UHGV virus genome: UHGV-0152919
Origin: a virus
DNA: 39,527 nucleotides
Direction: 5' to 3' (one strand)
The translations under genes were made by a program, and so were the position numbers. Positions 1,152 to 7,980 of the stretch are shown in pieces (within the stretch, counting starts at the first letter, position 1; every line of letters begins with the position of its first letter). The notes below the pieces were generated by a model. It was not told the origin of the DNA. It was given only the letters and a program-made list of their open reading frames with translations, and made no database searches.

Positions 1152-1347
1152 GCTTCACCTCGATAGGCTTGATGGTGTCTAACAGCAGTCGGCGGCGCGT
1201 ATTTTCTGCAAAATGGCGGCGTCCAGTTTCTTTGTGGTAAAACTCGTTTTTGCCAACGACCCACATCCGCTCTGTTTGGTGCAGTTTTTTTACCTTCGGG
1301 CCATCTTTGGTGATCACGGTACCGGTATGGGTTTTTACGATTGTCAT
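1144..1347 (-). CDS. small hypothetical protein (67 aa)
   Basis: ORF track; start overlaps the stop of the upstream PAPS-reductase-like gene (ATGA-type overlap). Confidence 0.4.
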   Translation of the reverse strand: MTIVKTHTGTVITKDGPKVKKLHQTERMWVVGKNEFYHKETGRRHFAENTRRRLLLDTIKPIEVKHV

Positions 1348-2222
1348 GCCACTACCTCTTCGAATTTCAACTCCAATTGGTCACCCCAGATTTCACATGA
1401 TTCGGAACACGAACCAGTATCAAACCGCTTGGCCTGCACCATCGCCTGATACAAATTTCTGTAGTCGCTGTCGGCATACATTCTGGCAATCCCGTCAAGC
1501 GTCAGGTGACCACGGTACATAACGTCTTTACCTGTTCTGCGATGACCATCCCTGACGTGTTTGCCTGTAACCAGTTCATTAAAAACCCGCATCAGACCTG
1601 GTTCGTCTTTACATGCAAGCCCCAGCTTTTGCGTTGACTTTTTGATGCAAAAAACACAGTTCCCGAGGTGCTCCGGTATTTGCAAATCAAAAGGTTGTTT
1701 TCGCCACCACCGGATAACATCCGACTTATCAAAATCTGACAGTTCGGCAAGATACCGGACGTCCGGTTTCGGTTTCAGCCTACGGGGTTCGTCCGCACGA
1801 ATACCGAGCCATGTGATGTAATTCCCTCGCCCAAAATGGTCATCGCAATATTTCGTGAAAGGGGTGAGTTTTAGCCTGTCGGTACAGAACGCGCCGCCGA
1901 TGTATGGCGTACCGTACTTTTTAACCATGTCCATAAACGGTTTAAGCACCGGCATTCGCGTCTGAATATCCTTTGGTTCCCATTCCGTATAACCATTTGG
2001 CTGCCCAAGTTCTGGATTTATATCGACCTGCAACACCGTTAGCGGTACGTTCCAGAACTTCACAACCTCACGAATAAAGCGATACGTCAGAGGATGTTCA
2101 CAGCCGGTATCCATAAAAATGAAATGGACGCTAGCGCCAGCTTTTCGCTGTGCTTCCATCAGATGAACGAGATAAGCCGATGTTCGTCCACCTGAAAAGC
2201 TGACGACTTGATGCATACTCAC
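1344..2222 (-). CDS. PAPS reductase-like PP-loop ATP pyrophosphatase family protein
   Basis: N-terminal SFSGGRTS PP-loop motif typical of the PAPS reductase/CysH-like superfamily; 292 aa. Confidence 0.7.
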   Translation of the reverse strand: MSMHQVVSFSGGRTSAYLVHLMEAQRKAGASVHFIFMDTGCEHPLTYRFIREVVKFWNVPLTVLQVDINPELGQPNGYTEWEPKDIQTRMPVLKPFMDMVKKYGTPYIGGAFCTDRLKLTPFTKYCDDHFGRGNYITWLGIRADEPRRLKPKPDVRYLAELSDFDKSDVIRWWRKQPFDLQIPEHLGNCVFCIKKSTQKLGLACKDEPGLMRVFNELVTGKHVRDGHRRTGKDVMYRGHLTLDGIARMYADSDYRNLYQAMVQAKRFDTGSCSESCEIWGDQLELKFEEVVA

Positions 2223-2225
2223 GGT

Positions 2226-2954
2226 TTATTCCTGAATGCGCTTAAACTCGATTACCCACACCCAGGGATTAGCGTTCCAGCTTTCTTCACCATAGATGGA
2301 TTCCCACAGGCGCTGGAACGCAACCTTGGCCATTGCGAAATCCCCCTTGGGAGTAAGGAATGTTCCCGGGTGATCAGGAAGCAAACTTCCAGCAGGCGGA
2401 ACGCCCTCAGCCCTTGCATCGCATTCGCTGATATCGTTCAACCGTTCAACGCGCACGTTGGTAATTTCCAACAGAATGCGTGATGCCCATCGCGGCATGT
2501 GAATTGATGGACGCCACCCACCATCAAACTTTTCATTCACAGTGTGAGGTTTCCAGTCGGCATCATCGGGTATCGACCATAAGCCGTAATCACCAGGTTT
2601 TTGCTCGCAACTGGCCCGATAAATCCTTGCTGCGTTCTTCTCATCGCCACGACAAAGGTTGTCGTTCCAGTCCACACTGCAACCATCCTCATTGCCTAAT
2701 ATCGCCCATGTTTCACGAACCCAAATTCGATCGCCGACGATACCAAATGGGCAATTGAAAACACTGCTTACACCATCAGCCCCGTACCACTGAAAACCTG
2801 CACCAATTTTTCTAACCATCACTGGTGCTTCTGGACCAACTTCCGCAGGCTGATTTTTCATTATCCGCCGCGTCTGCGTTTTCCTTCCTTCGAGGATGGC
2901 CCGGACCATCTCATCGTTGAAAATCATGCCGCGCTCTTTCACTTCGCCTTTCAT
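2226..2954 (-). CDS. conserved hypothetical phage protein (242 aa)
   Basis: ORF track; ATG at 2954 preceded by AAGGGGGA; no confident domain call. Confidence 0.55.
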   Translation of the reverse strand: MKGEVKERGMIFNDEMVRAILEGRKTQTRRIMKNQPAEVGPEAPVMVRKIGAGFQWYGADGVSSVFNCPFGIVGDRIWVRETWAILGNEDGCSVDWNDNLCRGDEKNAARIYRASCEQKPGDYGLWSIPDDADWKPHTVNEKFDGGWRPSIHMPRWASRILLEITNVRVERLNDISECDARAEGVPPAGSLLPDHPGTFLTPKGDFAMAKVAFQRLWESIYGEESWNANPWVWVIEFKRIQE

Positions 2955-2963
2955 GCATCCCCC

Positions 2964-3050
2964 TTACCCATGTGCGACGATGCCGCCAAAAGTGATAGAG
3001 AACAGCCAGAAATAGATCGCGGCCATAATGATTTTGAATGCCGTGTTCAT
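2964..3050 (-). CDS. micro-ORF, 28-aa hydrophobic peptide (MNTAFKIIMAAIYFWLFSITFGGIVAHG)
   Basis: Manual translation; AGGAG 8 nt upstream of ATG; below the 60-aa cutoff of the ORF track; single predicted transmembrane segment. Confidence 0.35.
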   Translation of the reverse strand: MNTAFKIIMAAIYFWLFSITFGGIVAHG

Positions 3051-3132
3051 ATTTTCAGCTCCTGTGATTGATTGGATACATGCCGCGCCTTGCGGCATGT
3101 TTTTATTTTCACTTTCTCTGTTTTAAAAATCA

Positions 3133-3149
3133 AGATTTATTAGAGCAAT
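3133..3149 (-). promoter_or_regulatory. C1-repressor operator-like site (16/17 match to ATTGCTCTAATAAATTT on minus strand)
   Basis: Plus strand reads agatttattagagcaat; overlaps the stop codon of the upstream gene. Confidence 0.5.
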
Positions 3150-3655
3150 TATTGTTGGTGGAGAAGCGCGTTTTCATACTCCCTGACCATTAACGTAAGT
3201 ACGCCGTGACTCCTGAAAACACGCGCCACTTCAATCTTATCTTCCAGCGCGAACGCAATTTTACTTAGACCAATTTTCTTCAGGAGATCAATCTTTGCTG
3301 GACCGTCATTTCTGTCATCGGTGGCAGGACGCATAGATAGCAAAGGCTCAGCCCCGTTTGTTACGTACTTCCGCAGCCAGGCTCGTGTTTTATCCCTTGC
3401 GATCTCACAGCGCCCGGTTACAAACCAGACCGTGTAAACGTTAAATAACTGGCGCACCATATCAATAACTGGAGTGATGGGAGTATCGGTGTCACAGGCG
3501 AGATTAAACTCGTTCCAGTCCTTTGTTAATGCACCTTTACCTGGTGGCGGAAGCAAATGCAGTCTGTCTTCAGTTGCCTCTGATATTGTTCCATCAATAT
3601 CGACTATGACGATATACGGACGTTCCTGGTGTGCATGTTTATTGAAAATACTCAA
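3149..3655 (-). CDS. HAD-superfamily phosphatase resembling the 3'-phosphatase domain of T4 polynucleotide kinase/phosphatase
   Basis: DIDGT (DxDGT) motif I near N-terminus; VTGR and DDR motifs in the same order as the T4 Pnkp C-terminal domain (from memory). Confidence 0.6.
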   Translation of the reverse strand: MSIFNKHAHQERPYIVIVDIDGTISEATEDRLHLLPPPGKGALTKDWNEFNLACDTDTPITPVIDMVRQLFNVYTVWFVTGRCEIARDKTRAWLRKYVTNGAEPLLSMRPATDDRNDGPAKIDLLKKIGLSKIAFALEDKIEVARVFRSHGVLTLMVREYENALLHQQ

Positions 3656-3727
3656 ATGCCCTCCTCATTGGACGAAAAAAATGCTGGTGGGCGCACTCCA
3701 CCAGCATTAAAAGTGACACTGTAACTG

Positions 3728-4990
3728 TCAGCGAACGTAAATAGTGCCGCCGTTCTCTTTTTCCCATGCATCGCTACGTGCATAGCAAACATCGAGAAGT
3801 CTTCTTGCCGCTGTTTCCTCTAAACCCAATTCGACAACCAACTGCTCATGACGGCGGGTAACCACATCAAACAGGGTATGCAGCCCTTTAGCTGCCAGAT
3901 CATCAATAAATCCCGGTTCGAACGGCAGCTCTGCCTCTGCCAACATAACCTCTTGCGCCCACTCAACTCGACGGACCAGTTCCGGGCGGCGGCTTTCCAT
4001 CTCTTTACAGATCAATTCATGGAAGAACTCTACCCAACCTTCCGGCTGGAACTCGCGGAAAATGGCCAACGGCTGGAAGTTTGGCATCAACCATTCGTTG
4101 ATCCGGATATCAATGGCATAGCCCATGTCGCAGCAGAACTGATAAGCAAAGTCCAGCTTAGAAACGATATAAGGACGCTCGTTATTGAACTCTTTAGGCG
4201 ATGAGATCCCATAAGCCAGGAGGCGCGGGAAGAAGGAGATTTGCCCTAACGTCGGATGAAGTTTGCTTGCAGGGAAACGGCGCTCAGTAATGCCATACAT
4301 TTCCTTCTTGAGCGTCGCAAATTTGGCATTCTCATTAACCAGCGCGGTAACCTCTGCTTTTTTATTAGCAAATGCCACGCGCGCCTCGCTTGCATCTTTA
4401 ATAGTTTTTTTGAGCTGTTGGTTAAGGTCGGCGACCTGCTTACGCAGTTCCTGTCGCTCGCTTTTAGCTTTGTTATAGCGTTTCTCAAGGTTAAAAGGAT
4501 CAAGTTTCATGATCTCTTTATATTGAGATTTTAGCGTTGAAATCTGTGAGTTCCGCAGTTCAACCATCGCGGTCATTTCATTGAGTTTTGTTTCCAGCTC
4601 AATGCTTATACGTTCGGCATTATCAGCACGCTGGTTGGCGTCATGCGTCGCATCGTCGATCGCGTCCTGTTGCTGGCGTTTCAAATGTTCAATTTCCAGC
4701 TGAAGCTCTTCAATTTCTTTACCCTTCAGACCGAGATCCAACTGCATATTTTCAGCTGCATCTACCAGGGAGTTATGGCTATCAGCTTCTGCGTTATAAA
4801 CATCAATAAGCTGTGCGTGAAGCATCTCCGCTGACTGAACCGCATTATCAAAAAAACGCGCTGTGAGGTCATCACAACTAACGCGGCGTTGCGCGGCCCG
4901 GATGTTCTGGATAATGGCCGGGATACCGGCATTCAGGACGTCAGGGATAGATACATTTTCGATTGATTGGTTTTGTGCTGAAGTGATCAT
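3728..4990 (-). CDS. hypothetical protein with long central coiled coil (420 aa)
   Basis: ORF track; heptad-rich E/K/Q/L segment in the N-terminal half; no catalytic motif recognised. Confidence 0.6.
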   Translation of the reverse strand: MITSAQNQSIENVSIPDVLNAGIPAIIQNIRAAQRRVSCDDLTARFFDNAVQSAEMLHAQLIDVYNAEADSHNSLVDAAENMQLDLGLKGKEIEELQLEIEHLKRQQQDAIDDATHDANQRADNAERISIELETKLNEMTAMVELRNSQISTLKSQYKEIMKLDPFNLEKRYNKAKSERQELRKQVADLNQQLKKTIKDASEARVAFANKKAEVTALVNENAKFATLKKEMYGITERRFPASKLHPTLGQISFFPRLLAYGISSPKEFNNERPYIVSKLDFAYQFCCDMGYAIDIRINEWLMPNFQPLAIFREFQPEGWVEFFHELICKEMESRRPELVRRVEWAQEVMLAEAELPFEPGFIDDLAAKGLHTLFDVVTRRHEQLVVELGLEETAARRLLDVCYARSDAWEKENGGTIYVR

Positions 4991-4991
4991 T

Positions 4992-5210
4992 TCAAAGTTC
5001 CGTATTAGCTTGTGCTTCGGTCATTTTTCCTAAGTATGAAGGAGGAAGGACTACGCAATTTGTATCCAGTCCCTCACCTATGGCAGCCTGTAAAATTCTG
5101 GCTAAGGTGAGTCTCTTGTTGCGATACCTGGTGATGACATGCCTGATACCGCCGGTCGGCGTAACAAAGGCGATCAGCCAGTAGTGATATTTCCGTCGGA
5201 ATGGCCACAT
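4992..5210 (-). CDS. small hypothetical protein (72 aa)
   Basis: ORF track; sits immediately downstream (minus strand) of the operator/terminator/operator element at 5225-5290. Confidence 0.4.
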   Translation of the reverse strand: MWPFRRKYHYWLIAFVTPTGGIRHVITRYRNKRLTLARILQAAIGEGLDTNCVVLPPSYLGKMTEAQANTEL

Positions 5211-5224
5211 AGTGCACCTTGTAG

Positions 5225-5241
5225 ATTGCTCTAATAAAAAA
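5225..5241 (+). promoter_or_regulatory. C1 operator-like site (attgctctaataaaaaa, 14/17)
   Basis: Motif match on plus strand; paired with an inverted copy at 5274-5290. Confidence 0.45.
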
Positions 5242-5266
5242 CGTGATGAGTGTACATCACGTTTTA
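5236..5266 (-). terminator. intrinsic terminator-like hairpin (8-bp stem acgtgatg/catcacgt) with T-run on the minus strand
   Basis: Inverted repeat 5241-5248/5255-5262 flanked by an A-run (plus strand), i.e. a T-run on the minus strand; downstream of gene 5292-5993. Confidence 0.45.
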
Positions 5267-5273
5267 AAAATAT

Positions 5274-5290
5274 GGAATTATTAGAGCAAT
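5274..5290 (-). promoter_or_regulatory. C1 operator-like site (minus strand attgctctaataattcc, 14/17)
   Basis: Motif match; abuts the stop codon of gene 5292-5993. Confidence 0.45.
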
Positions 5291-5291
5291 A

Positions 5292-5993
5292 TTATTCTGA
5301 TTCTCGCTCAAAAAATGAGCTGATAAGGGGAAGCCAATCCTCTGACACTTCGCGAGGTCGCGGTTTGCCGTGGAAAAAGATTATTCGGCAGTCTTTTGGT
5401 AATGCCCCATTCCCCCTGGAGTAACGCGCGCTCGCATATTTTGAACCAGGTTCCACAACATCGGCCTTGTAACTTACAAACCATCCTGGATACAGATCCT
5501 GAAATGCTGGTGTATCATCGCCCATAACCTTTCGTAAGAACCCCTGATCACCCCAGCATTCAGTAGTAACACAACGAGCAATCCAACCTTCCGGATCTTG
5601 CCAGAATGCACTCCAGATATGCGCTTTTACACTATTTGGTATCCACAGGGCACCGCTGCCACGATATTGTGGATGGTAAAAATCCCTAAGCATGGTGAAG
5701 CTGGTTGGTGGATGCTCTAGGATTGGGCGTATATCACCGGCAATAACCGTGTCCAAATCCAGATAGAACAGATCATCGGTTATATCCGGTCGGAACAACT
5801 CGATTTTCGCCCACCAGCCACGGCACTTTTGCCACTGGTTGATCAATGGGACAACTTTGACGCCAGGTACATGTAAACGCTTCAGGTCTGTCAGGCAAAT
5901 AATTTCATAGCCTTTTGGCAGTTGATTAACCAGCCACTGCACATCGGAAGCGTTATAGTCACCACCAGAGCGAAAAACTAAAGCAATCTTCAT
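5292..5993 (-). CDS. putative nucleotide-sugar (glycosyl)transferase-like protein
   Basis: 233 aa; YLDLDTV DxD-like motif and N-terminal Rossmann-like beta-alpha pattern; assignment tentative. Confidence 0.5.
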
Positions 5994-6682
5994 GCTGCAC
6001 CATCACCTTTCACTTTCATCAATGTCAGGTTTCCGCAAAATACGGCACCAGTGTCGATATACTGCTGATTCCAGAATGTCTTCGGGCTTTTCACCGGAGT
6101 GTGACCAAAGATAAAACGATCTGCGCCCGAAATTTCGCCACCAATATCATCCATCGAATCACTGATACGCTCGCGCGCCCAGACAACGTTGAAAAGCGGC
6201 ACCTCCTTACCGAATTGGTATTCATTATCCGGATAGTCGGCATGGGCTATAACGATAGTTTCTTGCCCCGTGTTCAACTCAATGATATAGGGCAGACGCT
6301 TTACCAGCTCCACCAGCGCCCAGGCTAATATTTCCTGATCAGTGTCCAGCATGAAGAACCATTGTCCGCCATTCATTAGCCAGTTATTCACGTTGCCATC
6401 TGGACTTAACGCATCAATCATCAGCCGCTCATGGTTCCCCATCACTGCCCTGAACCAGGGCATCTGCAATAGTTCCAGACATTCGACATTTTCAGTACCG
6501 CGATCGATAAGGTCGCCGACCGATATCAGTAAATCCTGCGCCGGGTCAAAATCCACACGATGGAGTTCGGACATCAGTCTGGTGTAGCAACCATGCAGAT
6601 CACCAACAACCCAGACATTCCTGTATTTGGTACCGTCGATACGGTGATAAATTGTGGGTGCCATCATGTATTCTTCAGCCAT
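5990..6682 (-). CDS. ppp: serine/threonine protein phosphatase, lambda-PPase type (P1 Ppp-like)
   Basis: GDLHG, GDLIDRG and GNHE metallophosphatase motifs; near-collinear with the lambda phosphatase sequence from memory ([15 protein letters not shown]...). Confidence 0.9.
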
Positions 6683-7290
6683 TCTTTAAGAGTCATCTGC
6701 GGAATACCTCCCATTTTCCCGCATGAAACAACGTCAATCTGTTCACGCGCAGACTGGAATAACAAAGGCAGGTGACTTAGATTTTTTGGCGTGCCGCCGG
6801 AGTGAACGCGTAGTTCTTGCGTAGCGTCAACGCCCACCAGAGCTACATGTTTGAATCCGATATGGAAAGCCAGGTTCAGAGCACCATATGCACTATTGCC
6901 GCTGGCAATTTCATTCTCATCTTCGCAAAGGCCGAAATGTGCGGACCAGCGCCACGCCCACCACTCGGGAGAATTCGTATTTTTTGGCTCCATGCCGCGT
7001 TCAGCCACACGACGGAAGCACAGAACGCCATCTCTGACTTCACGTTCTTTAACATCGGGTAGTGCCATGCAATAACAAACACCACGGCGACGGCGGCCAC
7101 GACCAACGCGCCGCATATTGTCTGGGGATGGATCAAGGGTGAAAAAATAAGAAGCGCGGTTAAGCCAGTCGATGGCCCCATTGACCGCTATAATCGGCAC
7201 TCCGCGCGGCGCAACAAAGTTTGCGGCGCTTGGGCCACTGCCGACGATAATAACGCGATCACTGCCTCTAAATTTATTCTTGGGAAACAT
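6664..7290 (-). CDS. Rossmann-like GSGPS-motif protein, paralog of the next gene (possibly MptE/DUF115-like)
   Basis: IIVGSGPS...IIAVN...[11 protein letters not shown]...VALVGVD motifs shared with the 7188-7850 product. Confidence 0.5.
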
Positions 7291-7850
7291 TGAATTGCAC
7301 TGCTCCTACTTGCATTCAAAATATGTAAATCTGCGTGTTTTTTGCGGGTATCCAGGAACTGCTGTTGCCATTTTGAAATAGACACCTGCGTTGGATTCCG
7401 TAGTGCTTGAGGGTGCGCGCCATGCCAATGAAGGCCGTTTTGCAGAGAACAGTCATAGCCGACTAATACCACTACTTCAGCCCCTGATTCAGCAGCCAGA
7501 CTGATAGCCTGCGCGCCGCTATTTACCCCTTCCGCCGGTCCACAATATCGCCTGTACTCCAACGAAAATGATTTCGCCGCCGCCAGGTTGGCTGTCACTT
7601 TGCGGAATCTCCCTCCCGGTATGGTGGATCCGTATTGCTTCCACCATGACAAATCACCGGCGTATAAGGCATAAATGTCATCGAACATCTGCCAGGAATT
7701 GTTAACCGCGATGATTGAACAGCCAGTTTTTTCTATAGCAGCACAGTCCTCACGAGTGAGTGACGGTCCGCTACCGACACAAAAAACAGTCCTAGTCGCC
7801 CTGGGTGGTATGTTCATTCTCAGCTGCAAATTCAGCCTCCAGGCGAGCAT
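7188..7850 (-). CDS. Rossmann-like GSGPS-motif protein, paralog of the previous gene
   Basis: FCVGSGPS...IIAVN...NSGAQAISLAA...VVLVGYD; start may be an internal Met; overlaps the downstream gene by ~100 nt. Confidence 0.5.
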   Translation of the reverse strand: MLAWRLNLQLRMNIPPRATRTVFCVGSGPSLTREDCAAIEKTGCSIIAVNNSWQMFDDIYALYAGDLSWWKQYGSTIPGGRFRKVTANLAAAKSFSLEYRRYCGPAEGVNSGAQAISLAAESGAEVVVLVGYDCSLQNGLHWHGAHPQALRNPTQVSISKWQQQFLDTRKKHADLHILNASRSSAIQCFPRINLEAVIALLSSAVAQAPQTLLRRAECRL

Positions 7851-7980
7851 TCATTTCAGCGATTACAGGGTCCACTACAGCATCTGTTTCCTGTTCATTA
7901 CGCGGCATGACCGATGCCAGCGACTCATAATTAACCTTGGATGACACGATTATTCTCCCGATGTTAAAGTGCACTACCAC
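7792..7980 (-). CDS. small acidic hypothetical protein (62 aa)
   Basis: ORF track only; overlaps the start of the next gene. Confidence 0.3.
   Translation of the reverse strand: MVVHFNIGRIIVSSKVNYESLASVMPRNEQETDAVVDPVIAEMNARLEAEFAAENEHTTQGD

Follow-up and report, generated by a model that had tools for sequence, protein, structure and literature searches.

Pap of P1-like phage-plasmids, a predicted stand-alone Pnkp-type HAD phosphatase

What does a Pnkp-type phosphatase do in a phage genome in which no kinase or RNA ligase partner is recognized? This question is raised by two neighboring open reading frames (ORFs) in a viral DNA of 39,527 nucleotides (UHGV-0152919, the whole of which we call the window), which a first-pass annotation had read as a HAD phosphatase gene next to a gene for a coiled-coil protein, in a genome that carries its own tRNAs. 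We found that the window is a P1-like phage-plasmid with 98.8% nucleotide identity to P1 in this region, and that the two ORFs are pap, annotated in P1 as "putative acid phosphatase," and pmgS, both of them genes already known and named in P1 (Table 1). The gene order pmgR-pmgS-pap-Op88-pmgT is identical to that around P1 Pap (AAQ14064 / YP_006560, "putative P1 acid phosphatase"), from which the window copy differs only allelically, with a mosaic patch in the N-terminal half of the gene. The closest protein cluster to the window Pap is 99% identical and has the NCBI name "3'-phosphatase," while the 2004 P1 annotation described pap as an acid phosphatase or nucleotidase. As a sequence feature, then, pap changes little, being an annotated P1 gene whose cluster is already called a 3'-phosphatase.

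Table 1. Features of the pmgR-pmgS-pap region, with positions in the window
Feature	Position	Strand	Description and basis
C1 operator Op88 (= OpmgT)	3133..3149	-	One mismatch to consensus; P1 annotation
pap	3149..3655	-	Predicted stand-alone Pnkp-type HAD (DxDxT) phosphatase, 168 aa, TTG start
HAD motif IV, E138-D139 (predicted Mg2+ ligands)	3239..3244	-	Aligns with T4 Pnkp D277-D278
D117 to K121 (motif III lysine)	3293..3307 (K121 = 3293-3295)	-	Aligns with T4 Pnkp D254, K258
HAD motif II, T80-G-R82	3410..3418	-	Aligns with T4 Pnkp S211-G-R213
HAD motif I, D19-I-D21-G-T23	3587..3601	-	Aligns with T4 Pnkp D165-V-D167-G-T
Shine-Dalgarno GAGGAGGG	3659..3666	-	5' of pap TTG start; direct sequence reading
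Terminator-like hairpin	3680..3708	-	Between pmgS and pap; 11-bp stem, then U-run; consensus scan
pmgS	3728..4990	-	420-aa coiled-coil protein; ORF, PHROG 1660, P1 annotation
pmgR	4992..5210	-	72-aa protein, first gene of the operon; ORF and P1 annotation
C1 operator Op86b	5225..5241	+	Pattern match and P1 annotation
C1 operator Op86a (= OpmgRa)	5274..5290	-	At pmgR promoter; pattern match and P1 annotation

The TTG start codon of pap is preceded by GAGGAGG and is kept in the P1-like loci examined, and the sequence 5' of the gene consists of the hairpin and the pmgS stop codon, with no kinase domain there. Of 63 P1-like loci, 61 have an undamaged pap, and the gene is under purifying selection, with a dN/dS of 0.095.

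Only one Pfam family, HAD_PNKP (PF25109), scores above threshold with Pap (E = 7.8e-12; 46 bits, with the cut-off at 27.6 bits); the runners-up, LNS2 (15.6 bits) and Acid_phosphat_B (PF03767; 14.9 bits, under a 27-bit cut-off), both fall below their own cut-offs. Pap also matches PHROG 415 at 3e-57, and an NCBIfam search gave no match. In the reverse direction, a profile of the Pap family matches Pnkp1 at 5e-28 and T4 Pnkp at 1e-23 and 1e-22, with a class C acid phosphatase as the next best match at 8.7e-5. An AlphaFold2 model built on a 124-sequence alignment reached a pLDDT of 93.9 and was used in place of a run on 9 sequences, which gave a pLDDT of 61 and was set aside. The predicted fold has the Rossmann-like HAD core, and the solved structures nearest to it are Pnkp phosphatase domains. 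Both the profile and the predicted fold thus place Pap with Pnkp, and not in another HAD subfamily such as the sugar-phosphate phosphatases. Together they indicate that Pap is a stand-alone Pnkp-type HAD phosphatase of the clade that includes the phosphatase domain of T4 Pnkp.

The active site, as far as it can be read from the alignment, agrees with this placement. HAD motifs I to IV of Pap stand in canonical order, far above chance, so the motif order for which the first-pass annotation had proposed a likeness to T4 Pnkp holds. The roles of D165, D167, S211, K258, and D278 in T4 Pnkp catalysis have been described (PMC3592404), and all of the T4 catalytic residues are matched in Pap (D165/D19, D167/D21, S211/T80, R213/R82, D254/D117, K258/K121, D277/E138, and D278/D139). 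Within the 124-sequence family alignment, D19, D21, T23, K121, and D139 are invariant and R82 is kept in at least 90% of the sequences. The one D-to-E change among the matched residues, D277 to E138, is conservative and common to most stand-alone relatives, some of which have aspartate at this position. On this basis D19 is the predicted nucleophile and D21 the predicted acid/base of Pap. The protein would be a catalytically competent, Mg2+-dependent phosphomonoesterase that works through an aspartyl-phosphate on D19, with the phosphate held by T80 and K121 and the metal by D19, D139, and E138. Apart from the glutamate, Pap differs from T4 Pnkp in an insertion of approximately 10 to 25 residues after motif I, which is found across the Pap family and could alter substrate access.

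Pap also differs from the T4 enzyme (PDB 1LTQ, 5UJ0) in having no N-terminal P-loop kinase domain, as the first-pass annotation had noted. The 168-aa protein contains no Walker A motif and so lacks the 5'-kinase that makes Pnkp bifunctional within one polypeptide. Among six-frame ORFs of at least 80 aa, the only Walker A motif ([AG]x4GK[ST]) in the 39.5-kb window is in the ORF at 14786-16174(-), which, from its position on the P1 map, we read as the gene for the DnaB-like helicase Ban of P1. The bacterial Pnkp1 of the Pnkp1-Rnl-Hen1 RNA repair complex (PDB 4XRP) is kinase-fused, unlike Pap, and acts as part of a heterohexamer that also contains Rnl and Hen1 (PMC4411300).

A phosphatase without a kinase had been regarded as an unusual variant, but the survey of relatives shows the reverse. 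Among the sequences retrieved, 123 are 140 to 215 aa long and have the DxD motif, and only 4 to 7 carry a kinase, making the kinase-less form the commonest architecture among the closest relatives of Pap. Homologues of Pap occur in 1,175 phage records, and kinase-less phosphatases of this type make up thousands of protein clusters, approximately 7,900 in all. The PHROG 415 proteins of T1-like (Drexlerviridae), Kagunavirus, Drulisvirus, and Krischvirus phages resemble Pap in size (approximately 145 to 180 aa) and in having no kinase, are 35 to 40% identical to it, and share its conserved residues, among them a motif IV of the form LED[RK]. These relatives are variously labeled "polynucleotide kinase," "acid phosphatase," or "3'-phosphatase"; the first of these names, used in many phage records for proteins of 145 to 180 aa, needs correction, as no kinase domain is present.

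We scanned the 5-kb flanks of 21 distant viral loci with homologues, using a 16-sequence subset as the search alignment; the sampled neighborhoods are few and phylogenetically clustered. A dNMP kinase (phrog_139, 1e-51) lies within approximately 2 kb downstream of the homologue in 8 of these loci, and a 5'-3' exonuclease, an endonuclease VII, and an Mre11-like exonuclease lie upstream in 4, while in 9 the flanks gave no match to any of the families sought. In phage DLP4, a DNA ligase gene adjoins the homologue, and in Krischvirus W115, nrdAB does, although this record has two matching places, the second of which may be a full-length Pnkp. The PHROG 415 relatives sit in DNA and nucleotide metabolism modules, whereas P1 pap follows pmgS in a repressor-controlled unit. 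In T1-like and Kagunavirus phages, the phosphatase gene is followed by a small P-loop gene, which was considered as a split-off polynucleotide kinase and rejected, as it is the dNMP kinase (phrog_139, 1e-51 and 1e-44). An Mre11-like exonuclease, unrelated to the P1 lambda-phosphatase homologue Ppp, accounts for the metallophosphoesterase beside the Kagunavirus homologue.

The first-pass annotation had also pointed to the adjacency of pap and pmgS. PmgS matches PHROG 1660 at 4e-194, and the coiled coil claimed for it is seen as weak SMC, Rad50, and TPR-type matches over residues ~58 to 235; its C-terminal part can be aligned with the helix-hairpin-helix domains that distant homologues carry, one such homologue (P0201) matching HHH_5 at 1.7e-7. 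Phage D6 keeps pmgR-pmgS without pap beside them, and in a diverged P1-like element two extra genes interrupt the adjacency, one of which, directly upstream of pap, is a DEDD gene of the Rv2179c-like 3'-5' exoribonuclease family (3e-50). The linkage is synteny within the P1 lineage. In published CRISPRi and deletion screens of P1, carried out on laboratory E. coli, pap and pmgS are nonessential, and their deletion or knockdown gives no phenotype and no plaquing defect; pmgR, in contrast, is essential by deletion, the loss of which leaves unjoined heads and tails. The paper on the P1 virion proteome mentions neither Pap nor PmgS by name in its main text. PmgS does not fit the "head morphogenesis" label of PHROG 1660 in the sense of one needed for infectious virions, because it is nonessential, is under C1 control rather than that of a late promoter, and goes unnamed in that text. 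We found no experimental basis for the label "PmgS-like head morphogenesis."

C1 operators lie on both sides of the pmgR-pmgS-pap unit, and the operator pattern occurs at 9 sites where 0.22 would be expected. The P1 annotation of Op86a states that it "controls expression of pmgR and pmgS," and Op88, which abuts the pap stop codon, marks where the following transcription unit (pmgT) begins. In this arrangement pap would be the distal gene of a C1-repressed unit and should therefore switch on once repression is lifted. The hairpin 3' of pmgS folds with a free energy of -18.1 kcal/mol (z = -2.4) and is a putative terminator that may attenuate pap expression.

We propose that Pap is most likely an accessory, C1-repressed early 3'-phosphatase that acts on DNA ends or 3'-deoxynucleotides, where we infer both the substrate and the role. 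Yeast Tpp1 and plant ZDP, which are HAD-type DNA 3'-phosphatases without a fused 5'-kinase, offer a functional analogy to Pap and belong to another HAD family, the eukaryotic PNKP type (PNK3P). The substrate class would be a 3'-phosphate on deoxyribose, that is, DNA 3'-phosphate ends, deoxynucleoside 3'-monophosphates, or both, and the product a 3'-OH that polymerases, ligases, and 3'-5' exonucleases could use. Pap would act alone, without a kinase or ligase partner, in a function that is dispensable on laboratory E. coli. The phosphatase of T4 Pnkp hydrolyzes DNA 3'-phosphate ends and 3'-dNMPs (24 per second with 3'-dTMP) and does not hydrolyze 3'-rNMPs (PMC3592404). We also count in favor of this reading the Pnkp-type family and fold, the complete active site, the purifying selection, the flanking C1 operators, and the gene contexts described above, with the DEDD exonuclease of the diverged P1-like element among them. 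Against a DNA 3'-phosphatase we counted that T4 Pnkp and Pnkp1, both of the characterized relatives, act in RNA repair in vivo, along with the insertion after motif I, the small number and clustering of the neighborhoods, and the lack of a deletion or knockdown phenotype. Our literature searches found no published assay of Pap or of any stand-alone phage Pnkp-like phosphatase, and simple enzymology on P1 Pap would give the whole family a substrate.

The first-pass annotation had raised tRNA repair for the phosphatase, and a role of this kind would have Pap remove 2',3'-cyclic or 3'-phosphates from RNAs, tRNAs among them, that host anticodon or HEPN nucleases have cut, as the opening step of repair, with the kinase and ligase supplied from elsewhere. 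That the closest characterized relatives are RNA-repair enzymes and that P1 has three tRNA genes speak for such end healing, but we regard it as very unlikely. Heal-and-seal repair combines a 5'-kinase and an RNA ligase in one genome, and neither a Pnk-type kinase nor a T4 Rnl1-type RNA ligase was recognized in P1 or the window: a phmmer search of all six-frame ORFs of both, seeded with four Pnk kinase domains, two dNMP kinases, a T4-type Rnl1, and a DEDD exonuclease, gave a best E value of 0.3, with seeds few enough that kinases of very distant sequence and ligases of other families may have been missed. Pap is set apart in this way both from T4 Pnkp with its partner ligase and, as to the kinase and the Rnl1-type ligase, from the Pnkp1-Rnl-Hen1 system. 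Likewise, none of the 21 distant viral loci has a polynucleotide kinase or RNA ligase within 5 kb of the homologue. E. coli RtcB joins 3'-phosphate or 2',3'-cyclic-phosphate ends to 5'-OH ends, and dephosphorylation alone would therefore make the ends unligatable by this enzyme. The three tRNA genes of the window (Met-CAT, 16434-16509; Thr, 18137-18212; Asn, 18215-18290), which are the counterparts of P1 trnI, trnT, and trnA, lie 13 to 15 kb from pap and pmgS in another part of the P1 map. The absence of a phenotype on laboratory hosts also counts against tRNA repair, though such hosts lack these nucleases. Nothing links pap to tRNA repair, and what stands of the first-pass annotation is the stand-alone Pnkp-type phosphatase, without an unusual architecture, a repair context, or more than synteny with pmgS. 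Pap might instead remove 3'-phosphates or cyclic phosphates from host RNAs after their cleavage; these RNAs would then be open to 3'-5' exoribonucleases and closed to RtcB resealing. T4 Pnkp removes both RNA 3'-phosphates and 2',3'-cyclic phosphates (PMC3592404), pap is in a repressor-controlled early unit, and the diverged P1-like element has its exoribonuclease-family gene upstream of pap. However, the Rv2179c-like family includes DNA exonucleases, the insertion is seen in one lineage only in a comparison that did not extend to the IMG/VR locus L072, which has a similarly diverged Pap, and the other gene contexts point to DNA and dNMP metabolism, so we consider this unblocking of RNA improbable.

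A phosphatase of free mononucleotides (3'-dNMP, 5'-dNMP, or pAp) that tunes nucleotide pools overlaps with the DNA 3'-phosphatase that we prefer because 3'-dNMPs are substrates in both. The second tier of structural and profile neighbors of Pap consists of nucleotidases, namely class B and C acid phosphatases and AphA; homologues in other phages have a dNMP kinase or nrdAB beside them; T4 Pnkp itself hydrolyzes 3'-dNMPs; and the insertion that follows motif I could constrict the way into the active site. Yet the Acid_phosphat_B score is below threshold, and no hydrophobic stretch resembling a signal peptide is present in the Pap N terminus (MSIFNKHAHQERPY), in contrast to the class B and C enzymes, which are secreted, so that Pap has neither the family score nor the secretion signal of that class. 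We judge an enzyme devoted to free nucleotides unlikely, if somewhat less so than RNA unblocking. The historical "pmg" (putative morphogenetic) labels, the MptE/DUF115-like pmgO and pmgP upstream, the match of pmgQ to a glycosyltransferase PHROG, and the requirement of pmgR for head completion could make Pap a sugar-phosphate or protein phosphatase that acts with PmgO, PmgP, and PmgQ or with PmgR and PmgS. No sugar-phosphatase family scores with Pap, though, the glycosyltransferase-like genes are upstream of the annotated pmgR promoter and operators, pap and pmgS deletions plaque without defect, and neither name appears in the main text of the virion-proteome paper; a part in glycosylation or morphogenesis is thus most improbable. 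A wider proposal, to which we also assign a low probability, is that stand-alone Pnkp-type phosphatases, Pap included, are a widespread phage countermeasure that edits 3' ends. They would strip 3'-phosphates or 2',3'-cyclic phosphates left by defense nucleases on phage DNA or cellular RNA, or destroy 3'-phosphorylated nucleotides sensed by defense, and with the coiled-coil, HHH-like PmgS, and the DEDD exonuclease in some relatives, might form an early end-processing module. If this were true, a phenotype would be seen only on wild hosts with the matching defense.

The genes ppp, pap, and pmgT superficially resemble the PUA-Calcineurin-HAD defense system, which was ruled out by HAD subtype, by motif IV, and by PADLOC, which gave no hit for Pap, Ppp, or PmgT. 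The HAD protein of that system is a C1-capped type I HAD with a GDxxxxD motif IV, the residues D7/D9, T122, K180, and G204/D205/D210, and an alpha-helical cap, and its partner is a PUA-Calcineurin fusion (PMC12871103). In Pap, which we set apart from it by description, motif IV is of the DD type (E138-D139), and motif I is followed by only a short insertion. An ASCH-like reading of PmgT came from one insignificant match (E = 0.89). Ppp, two genes upstream, was also considered as a partner; its gene precedes the pmgR promoter and operators annotated in P1, and the pairing remains speculation. Lambda phosphatase has 2',3'-cyclic phosphodiesterase activity (PMC2190708). On the 3' side of pmgT, the window has a NinC-like PAPS-reductase-family gene where P1 has pmgU and pmgV.

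The window derives from a P1-like phage-plasmid of the genus Punavirus; over positions 2260-7900 it matches phage P1 (AF234172, 79542-85182) with 98.8% identity. ORF calling returned the two ORFs at exactly the coordinates first proposed; they are pap and pmgS, which encode the HAD phosphatase Pap and the coiled-coil protein PmgS. The pap gene was previously known and annotated; the nearest protein cluster, at 99% identity, holds 2,547 member sequences under the NCBI name "3'-phosphatase." Positions 1-2260, notably the PP-loop ORF, are non-P1 sequence, and the DNA of this segment is ~92% identical to a NinC/PAPS reductase-annotated region of Stx-converting phages.

Features of the pap region (window positions)
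Feature	Position	Strand	Description	Basis
PP-loop ORF	1344-2222	-	PAPS-reductase, SspD/DndC-like PP-loop protein in place of P1 pmgU and pmgV	Pfam PF01507, 3e-9; PADLOC SspD, 1.4e-13
pmgT	2226-2954	-	N-terminal ILEGRKTQTRR resembles ASCH/PUA-type motif	
28-codon ORF	2964-3050	-	MNTAFKIIMAAIYFWLFSITFGGIVAHG; hydrophobic; AGGAG upstream; between Op88 and pmgT start	
Op88	3133-3149		C1 operator; abuts pap stop codon, begins pmgT unit	operator match, P1 annotation
pap	3149-3655	-	168 aa; "putative P1 acid phosphatase"	P1 annotation (2004)
Hairpin	3680-3708		terminator-like, between pmgS and pap; 11-bp stem, U-run, -18.1 kcal/mol	
pmgS	3728-4990	-	420 aa; "putative morphogenetic function; coiled-coil domain"	P1 annotation
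Op86b	5225-5241		C1 operator	operator match, P1 annotation
Op86a	5274-5290		C1 operator	operator match, P1 annotation
pmgQ, ppp, pmgP, pmgO	5292-7850	-	the other three genes flank lambda-type phosphatase Ppp	

The assignment of Pap to the Pnkp-type HAD phosphatases was borne out by Pfam, by profile comparison with the PDB and by the residue map. HAD_PNKP (PF25109) was the sole Pfam family to pass its curated threshold (46 bits versus 27.6), with the runners-up, LNS2 and Acid_phosphat_B, under threshold at ~15 bits. A single-sequence PDB search with Pap barely detected Pnkp1, the kinase-phosphatase of the bacterial Pnkp1-Rnl-Hen1 RNA repair complex; a profile from nine close homologues matched both Pnkp1 and T4 Pnkp, and a 124-sequence family profile aligned over the whole domain with Pnkp1 (4XRP, 5e-28) and the T4 phosphatase domain (5UJ0/1LTQ, 1e-23 and 1e-22), the next match being a class C acid phosphatase at 8.7e-5. 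The AlphaFold2 model from the 124-sequence alignment has a mean pLDDT of 93.9. In the profile alignments, Pap D19, D21, T80, K121 and D139 correspond to T4 D165, D167, S211, K258 and D278, which PMC3592404 describes as the nucleophile, the acid/base, two phosphate contacts and a Mg2+ ligand, respectively; R82, D117 and E138 correspond to R213, D254 and D277. The family alignment shows no variation at D19, D21, T23, K121 and D139, and at least 90% of its sequences share R31, D57, R82 and D113, among other residues. The Pap family differs from T4 Pnkp in a 10- to 25-residue insertion after motif I and in having E-D rather than D-D in motif IV. Because the catalytic residues are present and conserved across the family, Pap looks, by sequence, like a fully competent enzyme, and we predict with high confidence that it is an active phosphomonoesterase.

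When 1.84 billion representative proteins were searched exhaustively with a profile, 7,949 clusters reached an E value of ≤0.001 and 2,167 reached ≤1e-10. Among the retrieved sequences, 123 were 140 to 215 aa long with a DxD motif, only four carried an N-terminal Walker A kinase, one carried a C-terminal one, and two more were long enough to accommodate a kinase, a count that is no unbiased census because the ranking favors proteins resembling the stand-alone query. The form without a kinase domain, which the first-pass annotation had called a variant, is thus the common one among these sequences. By tblastn, a homologue is present in 1,175 of 50,697 phage records, mostly T1-like phages of Klebsiella and Escherichia, Kagunavirus, Drulisvirus and Krischvirus. 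These are variously annotated as "polynucleotide kinase," "acid phosphatase" or "3'-phosphatase," the first being an over-annotation for stand-alone homologues since the kinase domain is absent.

A link to tRNA repair had been suggested for Pap, in a genome with its own tRNA genes. The window has three, corresponding to P1 trnI, trnT and trnA and lying 13 to 15 kb from pap. We searched all six-frame ORFs of the complete P1 genome and the window with four Pnk kinase domains, T4-type RNA ligase 1 (Rnl1), two dNMP kinases and a DEDD exonuclease, and found no match better than an E value of 0.3; the only Walker A motif in window ORFs of at least 80 aa lies in the ORF matching helicase Ban by position. 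Likewise, no Pnk kinase or Rnl1 occurred within 5 kb of the Pap homologue at any of 21 distant viral loci. At 8 of these, a dNMP kinase lies within ~2 kb downstream, and at 4, a 5'-3' exonuclease, endonuclease VII and an Mre11-like exonuclease lie directly upstream. The homologue adjoins a DNA ligase in Stenotrophomonas phage DLP4 and endonuclease VII in a Drulisvirus, and nrdAB adjoins one of two matching places in the record of Krischvirus W115. Although the loci sampled are few and phylogenetically clustered, these neighborhoods point consistently to DNA or deoxynucleotide metabolism, not RNA ligation, and the link to tRNA repair is not upheld. Moreover, Escherichia coli RtcB requires a 3'-phosphate or cyclic phosphate, so a lone phosphatase would block, not aid, host RNA resealing.

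The biochemical precedent of T4 agrees with this direction: PMC3592404 reports that the phosphatase domain hydrolyzes DNA 3'-phosphate ends and 3'-dNMPs and does not hydrolyze 3'-rNMPs. Pap would most likely be an accessory, early-expressed 3'-phosphatase acting without a partner, and DNA ends or 3'-deoxynucleotides are its probable substrate class, a preference we hold with moderate confidence. We found no enzymology in the literature for Pap or any stand-alone relative.

On the minus strand, Op86a and Op86b are followed by pmgR, pmgS, the hairpin, pap and Op88, and the window contains nine C1 operator matches versus 0.22 expected by chance. The operators place the pmgR-pmgS-pap unit under repressor control and no late promoter is annotated for it, which speaks against a role that is purely late and morphogenetic. 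On the 3' side of the hairpin, pap has a strong Shine-Dalgarno sequence and then its conserved TTG start; in a transcriptome preprint, pap and pmgS fall into one group by response to hfq deletion. Downstream, the P1 record has nothing annotated at the 28-codon ORF. PmgT has 242 aa in the window versus 309 aa in P1; its sole PDB match, ASC-1, was insignificant (E value of 0.89), and one locus encodes a distant Pap homologue with a PmgT homologue 4.4 kb further downstream.

The pap gene is intact in 61 of 63 P1-like loci, with a dN/dS of 0.095 against a second allele group. Its synonymous divergence (0.25) is far above that of adjacent pmgS (0.03), and the excess localizes to positions 3300-3650, the N-terminal half, so pap is mosaic. 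This patch is 88 to 94% identical to other P1-like elements, while its flanks are 99 to 100% identical; P1 and the window differ there mainly at 3501-3600. The mostly synonymous changes suggest exchange with a diverged allele.

Across P1-like elements, the pmgR-pmgS-pap order persists even where identity falls to 51% for PmgS and 59% for Pap. The most diverged such element (Logan SRR27421428) has a DEDD Rv2179c-like 3'-5' exonuclease (3e-50) and a 101-aa ORF between pmgS and pap (contig positions 7135-8001), and phage D6 keeps pmgR-pmgS with pap absent from the 9-kb locus examined. Thus, the pairing is lineage-specific synteny. In D6, tRNA-Asn, tRNA-Thr and tRNA-Ser (locus positions 6414-7119) lie ~1.2 kb downstream of pmgS, in pap's place; the intervening gap is unannotated and has no Pap match. 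Aeromonas phage phiARM81mr carries a PmgS-like gene amid genes for exonuclease VIII, RecT and Dam. PmgS residues ~356-405 align both with a helix-hairpin-helix domain (HHH_5, 1.7e-7) in a distant homologue and with an RNA-polymerase-alpha-CTD-like segment of phiARM81mr p13; in P1 PmgS, the helix-hairpin-helix motif is degenerate and below scoring. These alignments offer a lead that PmgS may bind DNA.

A CRISPRi screen found pap and pmgS non-essential, in agreement with a P1 deletion library that it cites. In that library, 24 of 29 knockouts had no plaquing defect and unchanged anti-restriction activity; pmgR was essential, its deletion leaving unjoined heads and tails. The "head morphogenesis" label of PmgS appears to have no experimental basis. 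Upstream of pmgR, PmgO and PmgP have weak MptE-like/DUF115 matches, PmgO matches sialyltransferase-like PHROG 4603 (4e-74) and PmgQ matches a glycosyltransferase PHROG, so pmgQ-ppp-pmgP-pmgO may be a glycosylation cluster under "morphogenetic" labels.
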